Virus record (IMG/VR): IMGVR_UViG_3300027719_000003
Span: 9,586 to 73,585 of that record
Direction: 5' to 3' (one strand)
Length of the DNA stretch: 64,000 nucleotides
DNA from: a virus
Under the pieces are notes generated by a model that was not told the origin of the DNA, ran no database searches, and saw only the letters and a program-made list of their open reading frames with translations. Shown piece by piece: positions 5,810 to 48,797 of the stretch (positions are counted from its first letter, which is position 1; every line of letters begins with the position of its first letter). Both the position numbers and the translations under genes were made by a program.

Positions 5810-6481
5810 ATGGGACGGACTAAGGGACTTACTGATGCGATAATTATAGAAAAAGAGGGCGGTATCGCCAACGCCGTCGAGATTATGGGTACTGATGAGA
5901 ACGGAATACCGACGACTATCTGTGGTGTAGATATACTCCGCTACAAGCTCACCAAGTTCGAGGTGGAGTTTGTCATCGAGTACATGAACAACGGCATGAA
6001 TGCCGTTTCTGCCGCGATGAAGATATTTGGCTTAAAGCGTATGGCGGCGGCTAAGGCGAAGGCCGCATACCTTATGAACAACGGCAGGGTATTCCCCCTG
6101 CTTCAGCTATTGCTAAAAAATAGTGTTAGTTCTTCTTTACAGTACAGCCCCGCTTTGCTTATGACGAATGTTCAGACATGGTTACAGTATGATATCAATA
6201 AATATTATACATCCGATGGTGATGCTATCCCCCTTGAGGATATTGAGGAAGAGGCTCGTCAACTTATCAGCGGTGTGGACTATACCGTCAACTCTAAAAC
6301 AGGTGAGCGCTATGTCACCTATAAGTTACCGGATAAGTACAAGGTTCTGCAAGAGTTGTCGTCCATCGTGAAATTCCTCCAGACGCTTACGACAGTTAAT
6401 GCTGAGGACGAATCTGATGCCGAGCAGAAGCGCAAGGAAATTTTTGGAAAGTTTACGAATCATACCCCGGAGATTGAATAA
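5810..6481 (+). CDS. terS: Terminase small subunit
   Basis: LTKFEVEFVIEYMNNGMNAVSAA HTH-like segment, YKLPDKYKVLQEL C-terminal motif, immediately upstream of TerL. Confidence 0.75.
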   Translation: MGRTKGLTDAIIIEKEGGIANAVEIMGTDENGIPTTICGVDILRYKLTKFEVEFVIEYMNNGMNAVSAAMKIFGLKRMAAAKAKAAYLMNNGRVFPLLQLLLKNSVSSSLQYSPALLMTNVQTWLQYDINKYYTSDGDAIPLEDIEEEARQLISGVDYTVNSKTGERYVTYKLPDKYKVLQELSSIVKFLQTLTTVNAEDESDAEQKRKEIFGKFTNHTPEIE

Positions 6482-9290: not shown

Positions 9291-10242
9291 ATTTCAGATA
9301 CTCTTTAAGTATCGTTGGAACACTTTGACAAAGCGCCAACAAGAGATGCTATTGAAAAAGAAGCCAAAGCGTCGTTATTATCCTATCGCCATAGAGCATT
9401 CTTATGCGGAAAGTATATCGGCTTCTATGAAGATAGTGACAGCCTCAGTGCTGGGCAGGCTTGAGGGAAAGTTGGCAACATGGATGAAGATGAATGACCG
9501 TGGTGTCAGAGTAGATAGCCCCGATGATGAACTTGAAGCCATTCTAAAAGAAGTTGAAGAAGAGATAGCCGCTATGTTTACAACAGGGGCATCACTAGGC
9601 GCTGTGTTCGATTATGTCGAATCAGTTGCTAATCGTATCTTTGGTTTTGAAGAGATACAGTGGCAGTCACAGATAGAAGTTGTGTTGGGTATCCCATTGA
9701 AAACTGGTGCTCCGTGGTGGCCAGAGACGCAGAAACTATGGGTAAACGAAAATCACCGGCTGATTAAGAGTCTATCACAAGAATATATTACGAAGCTCAA
9801 TACACTATTGACTACAGGCTTTCAGTCAGGATGGTCATACGAAGAAATGGTTGGGGCTATTCAAAAGTTATCAGACAAGATTACTGGTTATCGCGCACGA
9901 CTCATAGCGCGTGATCAGGTTGGTAAGCTCCAGTATGCAATAACTAGGAACCAATTTGAGTCAATAGGTATGGATGGATATATCTGGTTGACTGCTCGTG
10001 ATGAGCGTGTGCGTGGAAATCCAAATGGAAGATACCCAAAGGCGATTCCTTCACATTGGATTATGGATGACAAGGTATGCAAGTTCAGTGATCCCCATGT
10101 GTTTTCCGAGACTGGTGACGAATGGTTGCCTCGATATGCGACAATGCCAGACGTACATCCGGGACAAGCCATTATGTGCAGGTGCACAAGCACTCCATAC
10201 TGGCTTCCGGTTCTTAGAGAAGCAATAGGGTCAAAGATATAG
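9268..10242 (+). CDS. Minor head morphogenesis protein (SPP1 gp7 / Mu gpF family)
   Basis: RARLIARDQ, YIWLTARDERVR, HPGQAIMCRC. Confidence 0.92.
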   Translation: MTPTSKNEFQILFKYRWNTLTKRQQEMLLKKKPKRRYYPIAIEHSYAESISASMKIVTASVLGRLEGKLATWMKMNDRGVRVDSPDDELEAILKEVEEEIAAMFTTGASLGAVFDYVESVANRIFGFEEIQWQSQIEVVLGIPLKTGAPWWPETQKLWVNENHRLIKSLSQEYITKLNTLLTTGFQSGWSYEEMVGAIQKLSDKITGYRARLIARDQVGKLQYAITRNQFESIGMDGYIWLTARDERVRGNPNGRYPKAIPSHWIMDDKVCKFSDPHVFSETGDEWLPRYATMPDVHPGQAIMCRCTSTPYWLPVLREAIGSKI

Positions 10243-40607: not shown

Positions 40608-41223
40608 CTCCTACAGATGAATAGAATTTCATACGGTCTTCTAACTCCATACCTCTATATTCTTCCTCCATCCTATTCCAGTAACAGCATGTACGCTTAC
40701 CTTCAGGGCATCCACCACGATAAACGCAGGAGGGTACCATGCCATAATGCATTGCCCAAGCGAATTCAGCGGGGTCATCCTTAATCGTGTCCCCGAATAG
40801 CTCTCGGAATGCAACCTTCACATTCATAGCCCAAGTTCTCGTCCACTTAGAGGCAAGGTGGCAAAGCCTTTGATGTGACATAGAAAGAAGAGCATCAGCA
40901 GGCCACGTACTTACATAGATGCGGGGAGCAGAGGAGCTAGATGGCCTCGGCTCTCCTGTCCAATCAGGGCGCTTCGATTGCACGTAATGACGGGGATGCC
41001 CTTTCGTATGACGTACAAGATGTGACACGACATCAGAGCGGCAGTTATCATCCGTTATGCGTATCCTCGCTTCGGCAAGGACAGAATGTTCAGCTATGAC
41101 GGCCTCCATAGCGAAACGCTCCATGTCCTTGGGTGACTGTAGGCTCAACTTGCCCTTAGTCGCCAAAGCGGCATAACGGATATCAGCCAGTGGTGAGGCG
41201 TTTAGAATCTCTAGTTTTAGCAT
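40564..41223 (-). CDS. thyX: Flavin-dependent thymidylate synthase-like protein
   Basis: AEHSVL, SHLVRH...QSKR, RLC, VPSCVYRGGCPE. Confidence 0.7.
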   Translation of the reverse strand: MLKLEILNASPLADIRYAALATKGKLSLQSPKDMERFAMEAVIAEHSVLAEARIRITDDNCRSDVVSHLVRHTKGHPRHYVQSKRPDWTGEPRPSSSSAPRIYVSTWPADALLSMSHQRLCHLASKWTRTWAMNVKVAFRELFGDTIKDDPAEFAWAMHYGMVPSCVYRGGCPEGKRTCCYWNRMEEEYRGMELEDRMKFYSSVGGASESIQQIPTDDV

Positions 41224-41232
41224 TATTCCTCC

Positions 41233-41410
41233 TTACTTAATGCACACCTTGGGCTTATAGAATATAGCCAACCCCGCAATGAATAGTCCAACCTGTATAC
41301 AGAAGTTACGGAGCAGGGTCTCTGCTGTAGACGGAAGTAATGGGAGCATTATCCCAAGGGTAAACGTCGCACCCAGAGAAAAAACCAGCGATCGCCAACG
41401 ATAATCGTTC
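41233..41410 (-). CDS. Small membrane protein
   Basis: Two hydrophobic segments; start approximate (MNDYRW). Confidence 0.5.
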
Positions 41411-41422
41411 ATAAAATCATCC

Positions 41423-41698
41423 TTATCTTTTTTCAAACAAATGGAACACAAGAGTACCTGCTCTCATCTGAAACGTCCCTACGAATTCAGAAGCATCACA
41501 GACACAGGGGTGCCCAGTTCCATGAATGATAAAAGTTCGGTTAGTGGTGTCTGCTTCCGTGTCAACCAGTGCCCACATACATGGTATGCCGTCCTGCATC
41601 TGAACAGACAATACTTCCGCACCTTCTGGCATAGCGATTATCTGTTCATCCGTTATGGCAAGCGGGAACTTCCATATACTCTTCGTGATACTCTCCAT
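41423..41698 (-). CDS. Conserved phage protein (IWKFPL...GTGH...VFHLFE family)
   Basis: AGGAGG RBS; family motifs. Confidence 0.75.
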   Translation of the reverse strand: MESITKSIWKFPLAITDEQIIAMPEGAEVLSVQMQDGIPCMWALVDTEADTTNRTFIIHGTGHPCVCDASEFVGTFQMRAGTLVFHLFEKR

Positions 41699-41708
41699 AA
41701 AATCCTCC

Positions 41709-41915
41709 TTACTTTCGCTTCACCATGAAACGTTCTCCATCGAACCCATCCTTTCCTTGCTTACATGCTTCCTCAATTTGTAGTTCATAAAATTCAGTGG
41801 ATTCTTGAAGTCGTGCTACTTGTTCCCTCAACTGCTGTAGCTGTCGAGAATATGTAGCAAGAGAGGCCGTCATATTCCTAAGACATTCTCGATGCCATTT
41901 TATGGACATTTTCAT
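41709..41915 (-). CDS. Small coiled-coil protein
   Basis: AAGGAG RBS downstream of a promoter. Confidence 0.7.
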   Translation of the reverse strand: MKMSIKWHRECLRNMTASLATYSRQLQQLREQVARLQESTEFYELQIEEACKQGKDGFDGERFMVKRK

Positions 41916-41933
41916 ATGATGCTCCTTATCAAG

Positions 41934-41962
41934 AGTGTACTACATTTTTACATAGAAGTCAA
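41934..41962 (-). promoter_or_regulatory. Sigma70-type promoter immediately after the cassette array
   Basis: TTGACT-17 bp-TACACT. Confidence 0.8.
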
Positions 41963-41973
41963 GTTATTATGAA

Positions 41974-41995
41974 TCAGGTTAAATCTGTGTTAGCC
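41974..41995 (-). repeat. Truncated attC (R'' and L'' only) of cassette 3
   Basis: GGCTAAC-ACAG-ATTTAACCTGA; R'' is the exact complement of this cassette's start GTTAGCC. Confidence 0.65.
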
Positions 41996-42201
41996 ACCCC
42001 ATTGGAACTGCGTTTCAATCCCAACTGTTCCGGGTCTAGGTAAAACACGGGGCCACGAAAACCGCAAGCGCACCACACGTTTACTATTTGTCGCCCGTTT
42101 TCGTCCGTGTATCCTTCCGGCCCATGAAGCTCATGCCCACAATCTTTTGGAAGATGCGAAAACGGGCACTCGTACTGCGAATAATCGAAAATGTTTTTCA
42201 A
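41974..42201 (-). CDS. Cassette 3 gene: Cys/His-rich hypothetical protein (75 aa)
   Basis: GGAGG RBS before TTG 42201; reads into the half attC. Confidence 0.65.
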   Translation of the reverse strand: MKNIFDYSQYECPFSHLPKDCGHELHGPEGYTDENGRQIVNVWCACGFRGPVFYLDPEQLGLKRSSNGVANTDLT

Positions 42202-42271
42202 GTGTTCCTCCAATGGGGCTTGGGCAGTAATCGGTATAAGCGGCCCCAAGCGCTTATACCGTGGACGATCT

Positions 42272-42333
42272 GGCTAACATTTGCTTAACCTGCAAGGCCG
42301 TTAGGACTTGTCAGGTTCAAGCTGTTATTGGGT
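42272..42333 (-). repeat. attC site of cassette 2 (62 bp)
   Basis: ACCCAAT-AACA-GCTT(G)AACCTG(A)CAAGTCC-TAAC-GGCCTTG-CAGGTTAAGC-AAAT-GTTAGCC; two unpaired bases; R'' AAC changed to AAT. Confidence 0.82.
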
Positions 42334-42527
42334 GCTATGGGCGCTTCCGGTATATGCATCCAATGGGTGTATCCCTTAATAAGCATACACTCACGACGAA
42401 AATCATCATCCCAAGGCCCAGTGAAAGCGCCATGATCTGCCAGACGTTTTTTATGATGATCGTCCCATACGTCGAAACGCGTATTAAGCGGTGGAAGTTC
42501 TTCTGTGACGCTAATCCATCCAGACAT
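42285..42527 (-). CDS. Cassette 2 gene: DUF551-like phage protein (80 aa)
   Basis: AGGAGG RBS; WISVTEELP...THWMHIPEAP; reads through the attC. Confidence 0.8.
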   Translation of the reverse strand: MSGWISVTEELPPLNTRFDVWDDHHKKRLADHGAFTGPWDDDFRRECMLIKGYTHWMHIPEAPIAPNNSLNLTSPNGLAG

Positions 42528-42596
42528 AATTCCTCCTGTAATCTCGCCCGTAGCTTGGCGCGTGTCCGCGTAACTTGTTACGCGGCTAAAGCGTCC

Positions 42597-42646
42597 ATCC
42601 AACATTTGCTTAACCTGCTTTAGTCAGGTTGAAGCAGTTGTTAGGA
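42597..42646 (-). repeat. attC site of cassette 1 (50 bp, minimal)
   Basis: TCCTAAC-AACT-GCTT(C)AACCTG(A)C-TAAA-GCAGGTTAAGC-AAAT-GTTGGAT; the gene's TAA stop lies inside R''. Confidence 0.85.
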
Positions 42647-42934
42647 ACTATTGTATTTGTCACACAACGCTTTGATCTTTTCTGCGACTTCACGGAATCC
42701 ATTTTCCTTTCCGCCGTATTCGCGATCAATAATAACCTGAGCCATTTCCGGCGCAAGAGCAATCAAGCGCATGTTTATTTCGCGCTGTTCGTCGTCGCCG
42801 TATCCTGTATAATCGTCTCCGCATACGTCGAGCGAGTACGCCATTCCCGGAGCTTTATCTGCCTCAACAAACGGCGCTAGACCGTGCGAACTTTCACGAA
42901 TCTTCCACGGCCCTTTAGTCCACGGTGTTTTCAT
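42641..42934 (-). CDS. Cassette 1 gene: phage-type protein (TxGPW...NxRLIAxAPE family, 97 aa)
   Basis: AAAGGAAG RBS; MKTPWTKGPW...INMRLIALAPEM. Confidence 0.8.
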   Translation of the reverse strand: MKTPWTKGPWKIRESSHGLAPFVEADKAPGMAYSLDVCGDDYTGYGDDEQREINMRLIALAPEMAQVIIDREYGGKENGFREVAEKIKALCDKYNSS

Positions 42935-43058
42935 GCTCTTTCTTCCTTTCGCGGATTGTCCGCGTATTGGCGTAGCCGATATGCGGCTGTCCGTCGTCCT
43001 AACAAGTATTATACCTATCGGTATAACTACATCCAAAAATCCCTATGTTCTTGCCATA

Positions 43059-43087
43059 AGTATACCGCATCTCCCTGCAAAAGTCAA
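43059..43087 (-). promoter_or_regulatory. Sigma70-type promoter driving the cassette array (Pc-like position)
   Basis: TTGACT-17 bp-TATACT, about 55 bp upstream of the first GTT core. Confidence 0.8.
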
Positions 43088-43091
43088 GCAC

Positions 43092-43685
43092 TTATGGCAG
43101 TTCCTCCACCGATTTCACCATAGGAATTCCCACCCCTATAGCCACGGCTTCCTCCACCAAAGCACCCTTAGACTTATCATATCCCGGCAGAAGCAACACC
43201 CAGTCTGCATCCATCATGGCCCGAATATCTTCCCGCATATAATCCTGCCACGTCTTCCATTTAGAGACGATAGACAGATCAAATGGGCTTATTGCCGTGT
43301 ACCCCTTAGCCTCTACCGCCTTTACCGCTTCAGCGAACGCTTCACGATTGTAGTTCACTATCCCCGTAATAGGGCCGGATATATACACCCGCTTCCCATT
43401 CACATGGCCTTGGTGATCGAACCAGCCTATATAGTATAAACAGCATATAGCGTGGGCAATGTGGGGAAGACCAGACTCCCTATCGATGACTTGGCCCATA
43501 GCCCGCTTCCATAGATGCCGGAAGGCGGCGGCTATATAGCGTAGCTTGGCGTTGGGCACCTTCTTCCAATTATCGGGGGAATACTTCTTAGCCCCGAACG
43601 TGAGCACCTTGGCTACGTCCTCGTGCGGCTCTGCCGGGATGAGATCGTAGCGTAACTTGTCCTGATCGTATTTTACACCCTGCAT
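43092..43685 (-). CDS. dATP/dGTP diphosphohydrolase-like (DUF5664) fused to DUF4406
   Basis: GVKYDQDKLRYDLIP, FGAKKYSPDNW, ESGLPHIAHA; then VYISGPITG...SKGALVE. Confidence 0.82.
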   Translation of the reverse strand: MQGVKYDQDKLRYDLIPAEPHEDVAKVLTFGAKKYSPDNWKKVPNAKLRYIAAAFRHLWKRAMGQVIDRESGLPHIAHAICCLYYIGWFDHQGHVNGKRVYISGPITGIVNYNREAFAEAVKAVEAKGYTAISPFDLSIVSKWKTWQDYMREDIRAMMDADWVLLLPGYDKSKGALVEEAVAIGVGIPMVKSVEELP

Positions 43686-43694
43686 GTTGCCTCC

Positions 43695-44639
43695 TTATTT
43701 ATAGAACGGATACCACGTAACGGTGAACTGAAGTATTTCCCCGTCACGAACTTTACCACTAATGATCCAGAAACCAGTATGGGCGGCGAGACGTTTATAA
43801 CGCATAAAGCCAGATTGTTTCTGGATACACCCCGTGCTGACGGCATGGATGTTGCGGTCAAACACGTAGAACGCCTTATGCGTATGGGATGCCAGTAACA
43901 CCTTTGGCTTCTCTCCACCAGTAAAGGCTTCTATGATCTTCTGAACGCGGTAGCTATAGGCGTAGCTAGAAGAATCTTCACCATGCCACAACATAAATGT
44001 TGCGCCATTAACGGTGACAATGCCTTCGTGTATTCCAAGATAGGTAGCATGGGGCAATCGCAATGCCAAATCTTCCCCTATATCCATTCCTACACCAGAC
44101 TTCGTGTTTCCCCACAGATCGTGATTTCCGATAATAAAATATAACGGAAGTTCCCATTGCTTCAAAAGTTCTACAGCCTTGTTTCTCTGTGCCGCATACC
44201 CTATTTCGGATAGCTCATATATCTGCCCCGGCCTTGTGCTCATCCCTTCCAGCACATCGCCCCCATGGAGCATAGCAGTACACCCCTGCTTCTTGCCCTC
44301 CTCCATAGCAGACAGCAGTAGTTTATCTTCAAAATAAATCGAACCTATATGCGTATCAGACAGTACAAGGAATTTGAAGTCTTCCCCCTCAAAAGTAATA
44401 ATACCTTTTTCTCTCGGGCGCTTATCCATGTTCATAGTCAACAGGGTCTCTAGCTCACTATCGCTAAACTTATCCCTCACCCTACCAACAATGTCAGCGG
44501 TATCTCCGAACTTCTTCCTGTATTCCCGCTTGTACCTATTAAACGTTTCTTCAGGAATACCGTAGGTCTCAAGCGTCTTAGTGGTGCCGTTCGTAGCCGC
44601 TGACTCCACTATCTCTTTAATACGTGCTTCGCTCGTCAT
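43695..44639 (-). CDS. Calcineurin-like metallophosphoesterase
   Basis: SDTHIGS, GGDVLEG, GNHD, WHG, SHTH. Confidence 0.88.
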   Translation of the reverse strand: MTSEARIKEIVESAATNGTTKTLETYGIPEETFNRYKREYRKKFGDTADIVGRVRDKFSDSELETLLTMNMDKRPREKGIITFEGEDFKFLVLSDTHIGSIYFEDKLLLSAMEEGKKQGCTAMLHGGDVLEGMSTRPGQIYELSEIGYAAQRNKAVELLKQWELPLYFIIGNHDLWGNTKSGVGMDIGEDLALRLPHATYLGIHEGIVTVNGATFMLWHGEDSSSYAYSYRVQKIIEAFTGGEKPKVLLASHTHKAFYVFDRNIHAVSTGCIQKQSGFMRYKRLAAHTGFWIISGKVRDGEILQFTVTWYPFYK

Positions 44640-44908
44640 CAGTCCTCCTTATTCTTAACGTACAAACACCGTAAGAAGCAATCCGTAGATCCGAATAAAA
44701 TATCGTAACAATAATATGGTGGGCTAAATACTACTCGACGTTGTACATCTGTACACACCCCTTCTGTGCTACCATAGTAATCAGGGTATATTGCGCCGAT
44801 TACATGTTTCCCTATCCATTTAGATTTTTCTGCTTCAAGGGCGGATTTGGACATAAATACTTTAATAATCCATTTCTGTATATCCATCAAATACCATTGT
44901 ATAGTCAT
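44639..44908 (-). CDS. Hypothetical protein
   Basis: Overlapping start and stop; AAGGGGG RBS. Confidence 0.55.
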   Translation of the reverse strand: MTIQWYLMDIQKWIIKVFMSKSALEAEKSKWIGKHVIGAIYPDYYGSTEGVCTDVQRRVVFSPPYYCYDILFGSTDCFLRCLYVKNKED

Positions 44909-45087
44909 ACGTCCCCCTTCCTTACCTCGATCTCATTCCAATCTTTTTGATTAGCTAAAATAGTTGCACATGCATAACAAAGATGAACTGTTCGTTTTTT
45001 ACCATTTTTTAATGTAAGAAGCAACTCACCCTTACTCTGCCAAAACCATACAAATTTTTTGCATATCTTACATACATGAAAAAACAT
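44905..45087 (-). CDS. Small Zn-finger protein
   Basis: CKIC...HLCYAC; GGAG RBS. Confidence 0.6.
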   Translation of the reverse strand: MFFHVCKICKKFVWFWQSKGELLLTLKNGKKRTVHLCYACATILANQKDWNEIEVRKGDV

Positions 45088-45099
45088 CTTCTTGTCTCC

Positions 45100-45555
45100 T
45101 TATCTTCCCGTACTACCAAACCCAGCCACACCGCGTACCGACGGCCCTAGCTCATCCACCTCTTCTATCCCCACTATATCCGGTAGCAGATACACAATAC
45201 CTTGCGCTATCCGGTCGCCATGGTTTATTACATACGTTTCATTCCCATGGTTATAGAGCTTCACGCTAATGTCACCGCGAAAACCCATATCCACCACACC
45301 GGCGTTGGAAGCCTCTATCCCAGCCTTAAACGCTAGACCAGAACGGGATTGCACAATCAAGGCACAGCGGCTACCAGAAATTGGTTCCCATGCTATGCCC
45401 GTGGGAATAACAGCACTACCACCCACGGGAATCTCTACCTACTGCTTATGCGCTGGTAGGCAAGCGTAGAGGTCTAGCCCTGCGTTCAATCCGTCACCGC
45501 CACCGAAAGACGGTATGGTAGCACGGGGGTCAAGTTTTTTGAAGAGTAGTTTCAC
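45100..45555 (-). pseudogene. dut: Trimeric dUTPase interrupted by an in-frame TAG at codon 39
   Basis: GGAGG RBS and GTG 45555; motif I AGLDL upstream of TAG 45439-45441; RSGLA, GVVD.GFRG, GDRIAQ and RGVAGFGSTG downstream in the same frame. Confidence 0.85.
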
Positions 45556-45736
45556 TGGGCTGTGCCTCCTTAAATATACTTAGTCCTGTCTTTGTCTTTT
45601 TAACATAAAAGGTAGAATCATCTCGAAAAGTGTAGACACAATCTTTGTGTTCATTTTTTAACATGTCATCTATCATGGCGCTTATCTTTTCTGAATCATA
45701 GGACTCCATATTGTTAATAATTACTCGCATCTGCAT
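45530..45736 (-). CDS. Hypothetical protein
   Basis: AAAGGAG RBS. Confidence 0.6.
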   Translation of the reverse strand: MQMRVIINNMESYDSEKISAMIDDMLKNEHKDCVYTFRDDSTFYVKKTKTGLSIFKEAQPSETTLQKT

Positions 45737-48700
45737 CTCCTTTCAGCGTTCCTGCTTCACTCATCTCTGCCCATGATCCATCGATCTCGGACTGCTCCTT
45801 TTCGATAGTCAGTGGTACGTTAATCCAGTCCCAATGCTCCCGTACCTTCTGCGTCCCATAATCCCAATACCAGTAATCAATCAAGTCCTGTTCACTTGGA
45901 TGGGCGTCGAAAATACAACTATCGTGAATCTCTCCAATGATCCTAGAGCGCTCCAGCCGCATGACCTTTTTATTGACTTGATTCATCGTCCATTGTAAAA
46001 TATGGTACGAACTGCCTTGCACTGGTGTATTGAATGTATTATTTCTACTCATAGGCCCATAACACTTGAACCCCGTCTTCAGCTCGACATACCCGTGCTT
46101 CTGGTAAAATTTCCATTGTGACTCACGCCATTCATTATGTACAGGAAAGCGGTCTTCCCACAGGATACGTTCTGCTTCCTGTATATGTCTCTCGAAATCA
46201 TCGAAATTCTTTACACCCTTGTCAAAAAGATGCTGGCGTAAATTATGTACCTCGGCGGTTTCCCACAAGTCCTTAGCAACCTGTTTGTAGAAAGAGCCAT
46301 AGAACTCGGCAAAAACAAATTGGCCCTTCACATCTCCACGTAATGCTTTTGTAACCTCCTCTGGTTTAAGCATGAAGCAATCGGCGGCAGAGTCTCGATG
46401 CATGTCGGTAGTAGGATCGAGCAGATACTTAATAAGTGTCGGGTCTTTTGAGAACATGCAATTCCCGGAAACTTCCAAAGATTTGTAGTCCATTTCTACA
46501 ATCCTATTACCTTTAGAGGGAGTTATGAACTCTCGCAGTAACTTTTTAGCGTTTTTGTCCCGCTTAGGTTGGTTTTGAACGTTTGGAGCGTTGGCAGAAT
46601 TATGCACGCAAATCTCATTGGCGATAAAGTTATGCGTATCCTCTACTTCCAGATCATACACATCCACTGCATCAGGAAGGACTTCTACAGCATAAACTGT
46701 TCTTACGCCGTCTGCCAAATACTCATAAGGCAAAATGACTCCTCCTAGCACTAGTTGGAATTTCTTCTCCTTCAGAAGCCTCCCTGCCTCAATATAATCC
46801 CCATCATTTTTACGAATCAAATGCTCTGGAGTTACATCGAGATGAATTTCATAAATGCCGTCCTCGTTATACCCTCCAATATAATGTAGCCGCACTACAT
46901 TACGATGCCCAGTCTTTCCTGCCCACAGGACACGTTTATGTGTCATGGTGTACTTATCCGAATACGTTATAGCGTATGCGTTCTCTATATCCTCTACATT
47001 CTCTATACACACTTCCCTAACATTATTTCCATTAGAGTCGCATATCAGTACCTTACTCCCCCTAGCCACGCAAGACCTAAAAGTATCTACCCTATTGATA
47101 TTAAAGTACGGATGAATCTTCCCACCAATCACCTCAGTCTTGTACTGTGCTATATATGTATTCCGCATCTTGAACAGCTTACGATACGCCAATATATCCT
47201 TTATGATCGGCACATCCAACTTCGCCAACGTCTCCTCATCCACGCTAGGCTTCTTGGCGTCGGTGTATTTTGTCGGTGTAAGCCCCATAATCTCATAGAG
47301 AAGTTTTGATAACTGTGGAGATGACTGATAATTAAACGTCCCATCTGTCCACTGTCCCAATAAGGGGCTTCCCATGATCTTCTGGTGCTGTACAAGCATC
47401 TGCGTGTCCAGTTCTTCCTGTACCTCCTGTAGCTTGTCAAGAGTGACATTGAACCCATTGGCCTGAGCAATCGTTAATGTCTGTGCCGACTCCATAAAGA
47501 ATTCAAAACCTTTACGCTGAAAGGCAGACATACGGGCAGACTGGCGATCAGCCAGCTTGAAGGTGTAGAGAGAATCCAAGGCACCATAGGTAAGTAAAGG
47601 TTCCATGGGGGCACGATGTATCTGGTTGATAGCGTTGGCACCATGTAGTTTCTCCTCTGCGGCAGTTGCCTTGAGATATTCATCCACCTCATCATCATAC
47701 CCAGAGTGGCCGAATTCAGTATAGACCATGAACTTGAGGCCCGTAGGCTTTTGGTTACTCAGGCAGTGTTGAGCAAGCATCGTATCCCAATCCCAGTTCG
47801 CTACCCAATAGCCGCATTGTACATACGTCCATAGCATCTCGAATGAAAGGTTCTGTGCTATTTTCTTGACATCTGAAAGCATAAGAGCCTTCCATGCGGC
47901 TTTGAACTTATCACTCGTAAAGAACGGGAATGAATAGGAAGCATAGCCATCGCTAATCGATACTGACCATATCTTCTGGCCTTCCCGGTGCGGCTTCCTT
48001 CCCGTGGTCTCATAGTCGAACGCCATACGCTTCCAGCTCATAGCCTGTTCAATCCACTCGATAGCCTTTGACTCATCCTGCGTGATGGCAGTCTGGTCTC
48101 TATAATCTATTAAAGATACTGGCTGTAGATTAAAGGCTTTATAGAGATGATCTTTCCACATACCATAGAAGGCTATGTCTCGTTCATACCGTGGCTTTGA
48201 TTCATTGCCATCATCATACGACTTCCGCTCCATCATAGACGCTACAGACCAGATCGGCGTGAGCCATGTCTTATATTCCTGATCGGGAATATGTTCTCCT
48301 ACAAAGGCAGAAAACGCTAGTCCGGTAATACGTCCAGAAAGGCGTGGCTCAATAAGCGAATCAAAGCCGGTTTCACCAAGAAGAATGATAGACACCGGCT
48401 TCAGCTTATTGATAAGGCTAAGAAGCCTAGAACGACAAGCGCTGATCTCCGTGAAGTTCGGGGCACGATTCTTTGATGGGGCACAATTGATAGCCGTAGT
48501 GTAGTAGCAATCCTTCGCCATGTCAATACCAAGCTGACGAAGGGTATCATGGATGAAACAATACTCTAGGCCAGAACCAAGCTCCCCAGCGTCGTCTTCA
48601 TCATAGGAAGGCCGAGTGCCAACGATAAGTACTTGCTTCTGGCCTTCCCCGGTGAAACGGAGCTTAGGGCTATGGCACCCCTCGTTCAGCCTACAATCTT

Positions 48701-48797
48701 CACACGACAAGGTAGAGCGTTTGACTGCTACCTTGGAGGACACCCGCTCATCGCCCCGAATGGTTGGGGCGTCCTCAAGTAAGTTAAAAAACCCCAA
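45714..48797 (-). CDS. polA: Family A DNA polymerase with N-terminal UDG-like (family 4) domain, 3'-5' exonuclease and an intein
   Basis: CEDCRL...C UDG4-type Cys pattern; FDYETTG ExoI; MDYKSLE motif A; R..VKGQFVFAEFYG motif B; EIHDS motif C. Confidence 0.92.
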   Translation of the reverse strand: MGFFNLLEDAPTIRGDERVSSKVAVKRSTLSCEDCRLNEGCHSPKLRFTGEGQKQVLIVGTRPSYDEDDAGELGSGLEYCFIHDTLRQLGIDMAKDCYYTTAINCAPSKNRAPNFTEISACRSRLLSLINKLKPVSIILLGETGFDSLIEPRLSGRITGLAFSAFVGEHIPDQEYKTWLTPIWSVASMMERKSYDDGNESKPRYERDIAFYGMWKDHLYKAFNLQPVSLIDYRDQTAITQDESKAIEWIEQAMSWKRMAFDYETTGRKPHREGQKIWSVSISDGYASYSFPFFTSDKFKAAWKALMLSDVKKIAQNLSFEMLWTYVQCGYWVANWDWDTMLAQHCLSNQKPTGLKFMVYTEFGHSGYDDEVDEYLKATAAEEKLHGANAINQIHRAPMEPLLTYGALDSLYTFKLADRQSARMSAFQRKGFEFFMESAQTLTIAQANGFNVTLDKLQEVQEELDTQMLVQHQKIMGSPLLGQWTDGTFNYQSSPQLSKLLYEIMGLTPTKYTDAKKPSVDEETLAKLDVPIIKDILAYRKLFKMRNTYIAQYKTEVIGGKIHPYFNINRVDTFRSCVARGSKVLICDSNGNNVREVCIENVEDIENAYAITYSDKYTMTHKRVLWAGKTGHRNVVRLHYIGGYNEDGIYEIHLDVTPEHLIRKNDGDYIEAGRLLKEKKFQLVLGGVILPYEYLADGVRTVYAVEVLPDAVDVYDLEVEDTHNFIANEICVHNSANAPNVQNQPKRDKNAKKLLREFITPSKGNRIVEMDYKSLEVSGNCMFSKDPTLIKYLLDPTTDMHRDSAADCFMLKPEEVTKALRGDVKGQFVFAEFYGSFYKQVAKDLWETAEVHNLRQHLFDKGVKNFDDFERHIQEAERILWEDRFPVHNEWRESQWKFYQKHGYVELKTGFKCYGPMSRNNTFNTPVQGSSYHILQWTMNQVNKKVMRLERSRIIGEIHDSCIFDAHPSEQDLIDYWYWDYGTQKVREHWDWINVPLTIEKEQSEIDGSWAEMSEAGTLKGDADASNY
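46599..47072 (-). mobile_element. Mini-intein (158 aa) in PolA
   Basis: FRS|CVARGSKV...VTPEH (block B)...VYDLEVEDTHNFIANEICVHN|S; no endonuclease domain. Confidence 0.93.

Follow-up and report, generated by a model that had tools for sequence, protein, structure and literature searches.

Within a 64,000-nucleotide stretch of viral DNA (IMG/VR record IMGVR_UViG_3300027719_000003, positions 9,586 to 73,585; the whole stretch is called the window, and positions are those of the window), the minus-strand region 43002-41974 is an integron-type array of three gene cassettes without an integrase, i.e. a cluster of attC sites lacking integron-integrases (CALIN). Our analysis makes it probable that its three genes (g1, g2 and g3) are genuine cassettes of a pool private to phages, which shares the core of its attC sites with the integrons of the bacterial host and is likely served in trans by the host integron integrase, IntI. 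An earlier sequence-only reading of this region had proposed that phage genes are packaged here into attC cassettes, and two full sites, a half site and a permutation signature now bear this out. On the wider proposition, that phages of Treponemataceae keep a counter-defence cassette pool of their own and parasitise the host IntI to load, swap and lose cassettes, our judgement is evenly balanced. The elements of the array are as follows:

43001..43003, minus strand: G|TT junction, where the phage backbone meets cassette 1, with no attC L' half upstream
42603..43002, minus strand: cassette 1, 400 bp, consisting of a 68-nt leader, g1 and attC site A
42934-42641, minus strand: g1, 97 aa, MKTPWTKGPW...EINMRLIALAPEM, with the motif TxGPW...NxRLIAxAPE
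42597..42646, minus strand: attC site A, 50 nt, from R'' TCCTAAC to R' GTTGGAT, a perfect match to the family consensus
42278..42602, minus strand: cassette 2, 325 bp, starting TTGGAT and consisting of a 75-nt leader and g2, which runs into attC site B
42527-42285, minus strand: g2, 80 aa, GWISVTEELP...YTHWMHIPEAP, with the motif WISV..ELP...THWM..PE.P
42272..42333, minus strand: attC site B, 62 nt, with R'' ACCCAAT and R' GTTAGCC
41974..42277, minus strand: cassette 3, 304 bp, truncated at its 3' end, with a 76-nt leader (42277-42202) that holds a hairpin, followed by g3
TTG 42201 to TGA 41974, minus strand: g3, 75 aa, Cys-rich, with TTG as the best start
41974..41995, minus strand: half attC, with R'' GGCTAAC, a spacer and a 5' arm that matches 10/14 consensus positions; its 3' half is missing

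The two full sites lie 325 nt apart and, with the half site in addition, stand in a genome without a tyrosine recombinase, as in a CALIN; an intI gene adjoining the array, as in a complete integron, was found in host genomes only and not in the phage. The window holds two copies of an exact 18-mer, compared with 0.09 expected, and a covariance model derived from 80 distinct aligned sites of the family scores site A at 72.3 bits (E 7.7e-16) and site B at 59.6 bits. Over the 64 kb this model gives no other match above 22.4 bits, the matches of 22.4 and 14.7 bits being opposite-strand shadows of sites A and B, and the half attC after g3 yielded neither a fold nor a full-site match to the model. 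The hairpins that follow g1 and g2 are imperfect and, folded as single-stranded DNA, have z scores of -3.1 to -4.1; the DNA fold of site A has z -3.5 on the gene strand and -3.7 on the plus strand. The stop codon of g1 (TAA) falls inside R'' of site A, and that of g2 (TAA) is located in L' of site B.

The consensus of the 80 aligned sites reads R''(xxxTAAC) AAC TGCTT-C-AACCTG-A-C (loop) GCAGGTTAAGCA AAT GTTRRRY. Although the 18-mer search fixed the 3' arm only and left the 5' arm free, the 5' arm shows conservation of at least 90%; the AAC and GTT columns vary little or not at all, and AAC:GTT pairs hold in 79-80 of the 80 sites. Site A carries the full R-box pattern (RYYYAAC / GTTRRRY), and site B has AAT in R''. 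A bulged C (column 19) and a bulged A (column 26), both at least 90% conserved and both on the top strand in the AAC arm, flank a 6-bp stem (AACCTG/CAGGTT), their bottom-strand equivalents being a G and a T 6 bp apart. For canonical attC sites, the available text of PMC5027507 describes a G in L'' and a conserved T, with a 6-bp stem required between them; the bulge layout of the phage sites is this same arrangement, and the extrahelical bases expected of an attC site are therefore in place. The terminal structure is variable, with loops of 3-18 nt in the phage sites and small hairpins that differ in sequence, and the chromosomal sites carry about 60 nt more than the phage sites.

Because integron cleavage falls at G|TT, the first bases of a cassette are expected to be complementary to the R'' box of that same cassette. 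In 74 viral loci the covariance model gave 195 matches (E up to 0.01), of which 158 on the array strand and of at least 32 bits were kept, together with the two in the window; those dropped were opposite-strand shadows, truncated matches and weak ones below 32 bits. The start of the cassette was the full complement of its own R'' at the four variable positions in 66/89 adjacent site pairs, and a further 12/89 were complementary at 3/4 positions, as against 7/89 within single sites and 6.7% in shuffled pairs. The mean number of complement matches was 3.54, whereas 2000 permutations gave a null mean of 1.95 and never exceeded 2.34. Inside single sites, the outer four R pairs were unpaired in 25-36 of the 80 sites, with covariation no greater than that of shuffles. 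A first test confined to exact-18-mer sites had been mixed (6/19 perfect) because diverged sites in between were missed, and was superseded by the covariance-model site list. In the window itself, cassettes 1 and 3 begin with TTAGGA and TTAGCC, complementary at 4/4 positions to their own R'' boxes, TCCTAAC and GGCTAAC. Cassette 2 matches its own R'' at 3/4 positions in the window and at 4/4 in the variant of metagenome runs X2 and X3: site B varies by A>G at 42327 (X2, X3, X4) and G>A at 42332 (X2, X3), giving ATCCAAC, the exact complement of TTGGAT, and the window copy (AAC to AAT) has therefore decayed. The array in the window is thus ageing, with site A perfect, the R'' of site B mutated and the third site half deleted.

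The family extends well beyond this genome. The exact 18-mer is present in 74 IMG/VR stretches, often in 2-4 copies a few hundred bases apart, and viral arrays reach 7 sites. By the sequence outside their arrays, 75 viral loci fall into 62 clusters, and a homologue of the portal protein of the window's phage was detected in 4/50 viral records, at 27-39% identity. A tyrosine recombinase (PF00589) matched in one of the 50 array-bearing viral records that the recombinase search covered (21 further ones were left out), and in 0/8 of those at least 90% complete. Intergenic hairpins co-oriented with genes, as these sites are, might instead serve in transcription or RNA processing, and, IMG/VR holding fragments and many array-bearing records being incomplete, the 'viral' contigs might be misclassified pieces of bacterial integrons. 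This explanation is largely refuted, and we give it hardly any weight: no terminator-like site was found in 41850-43150, the same core occurs in arrays next to IntI, and the permutation signature is present. Moreover, the genome to which the window belongs is complete, with direct terminal repeats, a portal, a family-A DNA polymerase (PolA), a ribonucleotide reductase (RNR) and helicases, and arrays are found in four other viral records that are at least 95% complete (G019, G022, G023 and G028).

Outside the viral collection, the 18-mer occurs in at least 120 genome stretches (one genome per species), most of them from assemblies of Treponemataceae and other spirochaetes; it also turns up in short contigs assigned to other phyla, which were given no weight. 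The covariance model finds 234 sites in 32 genome loci. In all five host genomes tested, IntI (TIGR02249) stands at the head of the array above the cut-off of 265, four of the genomes scoring 432-462 bits and the fifth 343 bits as the sum of a split match, and the host intI is transcribed toward the array. On two closed Treponemataceae chromosomes the array stretches tile about 192 kb (G001, about 856-1048 kb; L078-L186) and about 88 kb (G002, about 480-568 kb; L090-L192); these are very large sedentary integrons with 113-130-nt attC sites and a co-oriented intI at one end. Three loci downstream of intI (L197, L198 and L200) share the sequence GTCCAAT(A/T)AATG|TT before the first cassette, a candidate attI core. 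The phage junction, ATAATACTTG|TT, was compared with this host sequence, and the likeness is too weak to call.

The sites of phages and chromosomes, the latter sampled in two genomes, differ in length: 118/121 phage sites measure 40-69 nt (median 58) and 179/181 chromosomal sites 100-139 nt (median 119; Fisher p 7e-78). Median cassette length is 366 bp in phages versus 862 bp in chromosomes, and the median open reading frame (ORF) has 81 versus 187 aa. The cargo differs as well. Among the 86 phage ORFs were DUF551 (4), DNA methyltransferases of five Pfam families, Mom, Lar, RtcB and AAA_33, and the full Pfam list of 12 families includes no GNAT, PIN or PemK. Among the 143 chromosomal ORFs, the best 25 of 121 families include at least 12 GNAT proteins, PIN (4), PemK/MazF (2), HAD, AbiTii and glyoxalase; for GNAT, 12/143 chromosomal ORFs (PF00583 alone) compare with 0/86 phage ORFs (p 0.004). 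The sequence-only reading had called the cargo phage-type, as opposed to typical bacterial cassette cargo, and had suggested a phage-specific pool; the contrast in cargo, the 74 viral stretches and the absence of shared ORFs all speak for it, for none of 84 phage cassette ORFs matched any of the 143 chromosomal ORFs at E 1e-5. Those matches that phage ORFs had in 'genome' loci were mostly in short-site loci or in short contigs of metagenome-assembled genomes (MAGs), and one such locus has the same length as a viral record.

Two of the genes in the window belong to recognisable families. The motif TxGPW...NxRLIAxAPE that had been read from g1 is confirmed in its 97-aa translation. This protein matches phrog_1273 (E 1.1e-6), a precomputed PF27050 label is attached to 7/14 of its database homologues, and its nearest Atlas clusters are those of PF27050 (Phage_P22_Y8K6), mostly viral, with a score of 0.89; a local copy of Pfam gave no match, so that the link to PF27050 comes from the homologue labels, the Atlas neighbours and phrog_1273. 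The description of g2 as DUF551-like proved right, the Pfam score for DUF551 (PF04448) being 35.9 bits against a cut-off of 22 (E 1.4e-8, residues 3-63); g2 also matches phrog_924 (E 2.7e-9). A single-protein scan confirmed no relatives of g2 in viral contigs, and DUF551 cassettes surfaced only via the site-based sample. No Pfam or PHROG family was found for g3, and its nearest Atlas clusters, viral hypothetical proteins with a score of 0.88, are a lead only. A Lar-type zinc ribbon was considered for g3 from its Cys pattern, and no search result backs it.

In principle, the array could reflect a one-off illegitimate capture of host chromosomal cassettes, with no phage-specific pool behind it, as the common site core and the decay of the window array might suggest. 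We regard this as very unlikely and largely refuted, because the family spans 74 viral stretches in 62 clusters, because site length, cassette length and cargo all differ from those of the host arrays, and because the ORFs have nothing in common with the chromosomal sample (0/84); searches of five Treponemataceae genomes with IntI-linked arrays gave no g1, g3 or DUF551, although such blanks are weak.

The phage cassettes are built on a common chassis. Their leaders, in the window and in loci L003-L076, are about 65-75 nt long, with a hairpin of 6-9 bp and a ribosome-binding site (RBS) at the end; the leader of cassette 1 (43002-42935) holds two hairpins and an RBS, that of cassette 2 (42602-42528) the palindrome CCGCGTAAC-AA-GTTACGCGG, and that of cassette 3 is 95% identical to a leader in locus L010 that precedes another ORF. 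Leader families are each tied to one R'/R'' type, yet they precede unrelated ORFs: the ORFs were unrelated in 76/92 leader-sharing cassette pairs, and as many as 6 distinct ORF families occur behind a single leader family of 4 to 7 cassettes. The cassette ORFs were taken as the longest frame, and a few of these calls may be wrong. Because the leader is contiguous with attC in the circular form of a cassette, the conserved unit is attC plus leader, with the ORF as a variable insert. A palindrome resembling two R-box halves in inverted orientation, xTAAC-AA-GTTAx, is present in several leaders. The leaders might act as promoters, RNA processing sites or translation insulators. Some phage cassettes measure only about 190-240 bp from R' to R' (L030 6135-6399, L053 10723-10989, L033 7418-7714 and L014 8895-9179); they leave little room for a gene and may be a near-empty chassis.

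The cassettes also appear to have moved as units. In a 43-kb viral contig, L203, g1 recurs at 98% amino acid identity between two full attC sites, and the sole likeness between this contig and the 64-kb window is one 383-nt match of 97.1% (window 43004 to 42622), which begins at the G|TT point and ends in the loop of site A. Upstream of G|TT the two sequences are unlike, with phage backbone in the window and a diverged attC in L203, and the L203 record contains no homologue of the phage's portal. A sister phage, G011, is 85-91% identical in nucleotide sequence across more than 10 kb of backbone; this identity is lost at window position 42999 and returns only at 41425, and at the same junction G011 carries six attC sites with a different set of cassettes, one of them encoding a DUF551 protein of 37% identity. 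For runs X2 and X3, the match of a backbone contig (685 nt, 25 differences) ends at 43001, beyond which the X2 contig continues with a TTGGGC start and leader-like sequence, and another X2 contig has cassettes 2 and 3 and departs at 42644, inside R'' of site A. Several joints whose sides span 21-34 nt within repeated stretches of attC or leader were not used; among them is a seemingly array-free joint (43001/41963) in X3. The earlier suggestion that cassettes may shuffle between phages thus gains support from the cassette-limited identity with L203, the junction of G011 and the contig variants. The closest homologue of g1, that in L203, lies between attC sites in a viral contig and not in a chromosomal integron; closest homologues in ordinary chromosomal integrons, or without attC, were the outcomes that the sequence-only reading had named as speaking against it, and neither occurred. 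More distant relatives of g1 (52% and 47%) and a relative of g3 (68%) are found in viral contigs with no family attC within 1.5 kb, so that these phage gene families occur both inside and outside a cassette frame. The array in L203 also includes, at 1380-1444 and among family-consensus sites, an attC of the same layout with other L-box letters (AAGTTCGAGCCGAC ... CGGCTCAACTT), so that more than one L-box variant coexists in one phage array.

Such exchange might proceed mainly by homologous recombination, with attC plus leader (about 130 bp) acting as portable homology arms and integrase events being rare or ancient. The near identity of leader families and attC arms across unrelated ORFs (the 76/92 pairs noted above) would supply such arms; in run X1 the bins of attC and leader are 25-30 times deeper than the phage backbone, so that homology is abundant, and the lack of a recombinase of the phages' own would fit as well. 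We nevertheless consider this explanation improbable, though the strongest of the rivals. The complementarity of cassette start and R'' (66/89), together with the linkage of leader and R'', implies a circular form cut at G|TT, and homologous recombination would preserve this signature rather than create it. Furthermore, the match between the window and L203 starts at G|TT despite unlike upstream sequences, and the backbone breaks in the sister phage and in the other runs are also at G|TT.

Under the integrase-based reading that we favour, the host IntI would act in trans on replicating phage DNA during infection, folding the bottom strand of the phage attC sites and exchanging cassettes at G|TT, both between attC sites and at an attI- or attG-like G|TT point downstream of a phage promoter. 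The pool has short sites, small ORFs and anti-restriction or accessory cargo, and is spread over many unrelated phage lineages of one host clade. We infer that IntI is the enzyme because the site core is shared, because IntI is present in every host tested and because the phages are without a recombinase; exchange is presumably ongoing, and the cargo would serve counter-defence. The junction (...ACTTG|TT), which lies 56 nt downstream of a promoter-like site, fits a G|WT target, and its reuse with different first cassettes in the sister phage and in other strains makes it more attI-like than a random attG.

Several points weigh against this reading. Only 1/3 of the sites in the window is intact, and the local array may therefore be a fossil. 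The unpaired spacer of the phage sites is 3 nt per arm (AAC/AAT), compared with the usual 5-6 nt, and many phage sites measure 40-56 nt (site A, 50 nt), below the published minimum in an attC length range of 57-141 bp (available text of PMC5027507, also for the spacer); with short spacers and short sites, function with IntI is not guaranteed. Action of a recombinase on the phage sites is putative, and the probable host assignment draws on site identity and MAG labels. The four metagenome runs are represented by contigs, which attest presence only, and several joints have sides shorter than 30 nt. The viral and the chromosomal collections were both sampled via one exact 18-mer, and the chromosomal sites and cargo come from two genomes only. 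A single short site, accompanied by ordinary cargo, is found in each of three chromosomal loci, and the attC sites of T. denticola are given as 63-68 bp in the available text of PMC3607928, so that site length correlates with compartment and does not define it. Finally, a homologue in another viral locus was found for only 15/84 phage cassette ORFs, and most of the sharing is therefore deduced from sites rather than cargo; most of the phage cassette ORFs are also without an annotated family.

Integrons have been seen as bacterial gene-capture devices, and phage attC clusters have so far been rare, isolated cases. If our interpretation is true, a site-specific route would be added to the known routes of phage mosaicism, across unrelated lineages; integron integrases would take part in the phage-host arms race on both sides, the counter-defence store of the phages mirroring the defence and accessory store in the giant chromosomal integron of their host; and a lineage-specific attC core could indicate the host clade of uncultivated phages. 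The origin of cassettes is an old open question, for which a chassis with unrelated ORFs, and relatives of g1 with and without that chassis, offer a concrete data set. A literature search found no report of a large homogeneous phage cassette pool tied to the integron of one clade, nor, in print, of its separation from the chromosomal pool or of a common leader-plus-attC chassis. Phage CALINs are already known; the large private pool on a standard chassis is the part that, not having been found in print, is apparently new.

Small ORFs bounded by conserved stem-loops have a known parallel. In the promoter-early stem-loop (PeSL) cassettes of T4-type phages, small novel ORFs in hyperplastic regions are shuffled by homologous recombination, and the stem-loop and regulatory modules that bound these ORFs likewise promote modular shuffling. 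To our knowledge, PeSL cassettes have no R/L boxes, extrahelical bases, G|TT permutation signature or host-integron counterpart.

Comparison with published integron systems, as far as their available texts go, shows both continuity and difference. Among 10,705 isolate phage genomes, Qi 2023 (PMC9892861) identified 17 CALINs whose cargo includes methyltransferases, and IntI1 recombined 5/6 of the phage attC sites tested there. The arrays in that study resemble ours in being IntI-less attC arrays in virulent phages, with co-oriented cassettes and DNA methyltransferase cargo, and the use of phage attC sites by bacterial integrases is likewise proposed (PMC9892861). Its CALINs are small, isolated cases in phages of unrelated hosts, with phages stressed as carriers between bacteria, whereas ours form a homogeneous site family in at least 74 uncultivated viral stretches, tied to one host clade through the core of the host arrays; they also stand apart as a pool whose sites are short, whose leader is standard and whose cargo does not overlap that of the chromosomal sample. 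The sedentary integrons of Treponema (PMC3607928) have an R/L-box core, an intI directed toward the array and lineage-homogeneous attC sites, and those of environmental Treponemataceae are alike. Unlike the chromosomal integrons of Treponema, the phage arrays lack intI and any recognised attI, and they hold 2-7 sites, as opposed to arrays of up to about 190 kb. IntI-catalysed insertion of cassettes at 5'-GWT-3' attG targets outside integrons, and loss of the attC of inserted cassettes by replication slippage, have been reported (10.1101/2022.09.11.507474). The phage junction fits the former (G|WT) and the half-deleted third site the latter, although the junction is reused, unlike a random attG. 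Sedentary chromosomal integrons (SCIs) have also been described as biobanks of anti-phage defence (10.1101/2024.07.02.601686), in which cassettes likewise stock genes of the phage-bacterium conflict; those are bacterial defence cassettes, whereas here it is phages that keep the store, with annotated cargo of the anti-restriction kind.

The array belongs to a tailed, lytic-type phage and sits in its early/replication module. The source record of 73,585 bp, 64,000 nt of which form the window, has direct terminal repeats and is rated complete; it codes for the portal, a family-A DNA polymerase with an intein, ribonucleotide reductase, RNA ligase, and helicases of the DnaB and SNF2 types. Searched at E up to 1, the 73.6-kb genome yielded no tyrosine recombinase (PF00589). 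Against the GenBank phage collection, the query window 41000-45500 had a single weak match covering 2% of the query and no close relative. The array and all neighbouring genes are on the minus strand. Directly upstream of it, at 43092-43685 (minus strand), a dATP/dGTP diphosphohydrolase N-terminal domain (PF18909, E 2.5e-30) is fused to DUF4406, a nucleoside 2-deoxyribosyltransferase-like domain; PurZ/adenylosuccinate synthetase, searched for because of this gene, was not found in the phage genome. Two promoter-like sites flank the array:

43059..43087, minus strand: TTGACT, 17 nt, TATACT; 10/12 consensus positions, a consensus match only
41934..41962, minus strand: TTGACT, 17 nt, TACACT; 9/12 consensus positions, directly after the truncated array and before the next phage gene

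The first of these, between the diphosphohydrolase-DUF4406 gene and the array, is a candidate analogue of the cassette promoter (Pc), judged by its sequence. At the second, a 30-34-nt piece is far deeper than the cassettes in run X2 and is therefore a repeated module.

Further observations concern the neighbourhood. The family-A DNA polymerase gene (45714-48797, minus strand) has an N-terminal domain of the uracil-DNA-glycosylase superfamily and an intein splicing domain, and the sister phage shows no identity over 47047-46687, inside this gene, which may represent presence or absence of the intein. Just beyond the array, at 41423-41915 (minus strand), lie genes for a 68-aa coiled-coil protein and for a DUF7352 protein, both replaced in the sister phage. 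Homologues of these two genes adjoin attC sites in other viral contigs (L032 9803-10066; L049 5142-5342), and the DUF7352 ORF terminates at the first attC of L032; both genes may be former cassettes whose sites have since been lost. Directly 5' of the G|TT junction, at 43010-43030 (minus strand), is a hairpin (TTATACC/GGTATAA) whose pairing is kept despite base changes in the sister phage (TTATGC/GCATAA; L207 about 6040-6070), and whose arms resemble an R'/R'' pair of the GTTATAC type.

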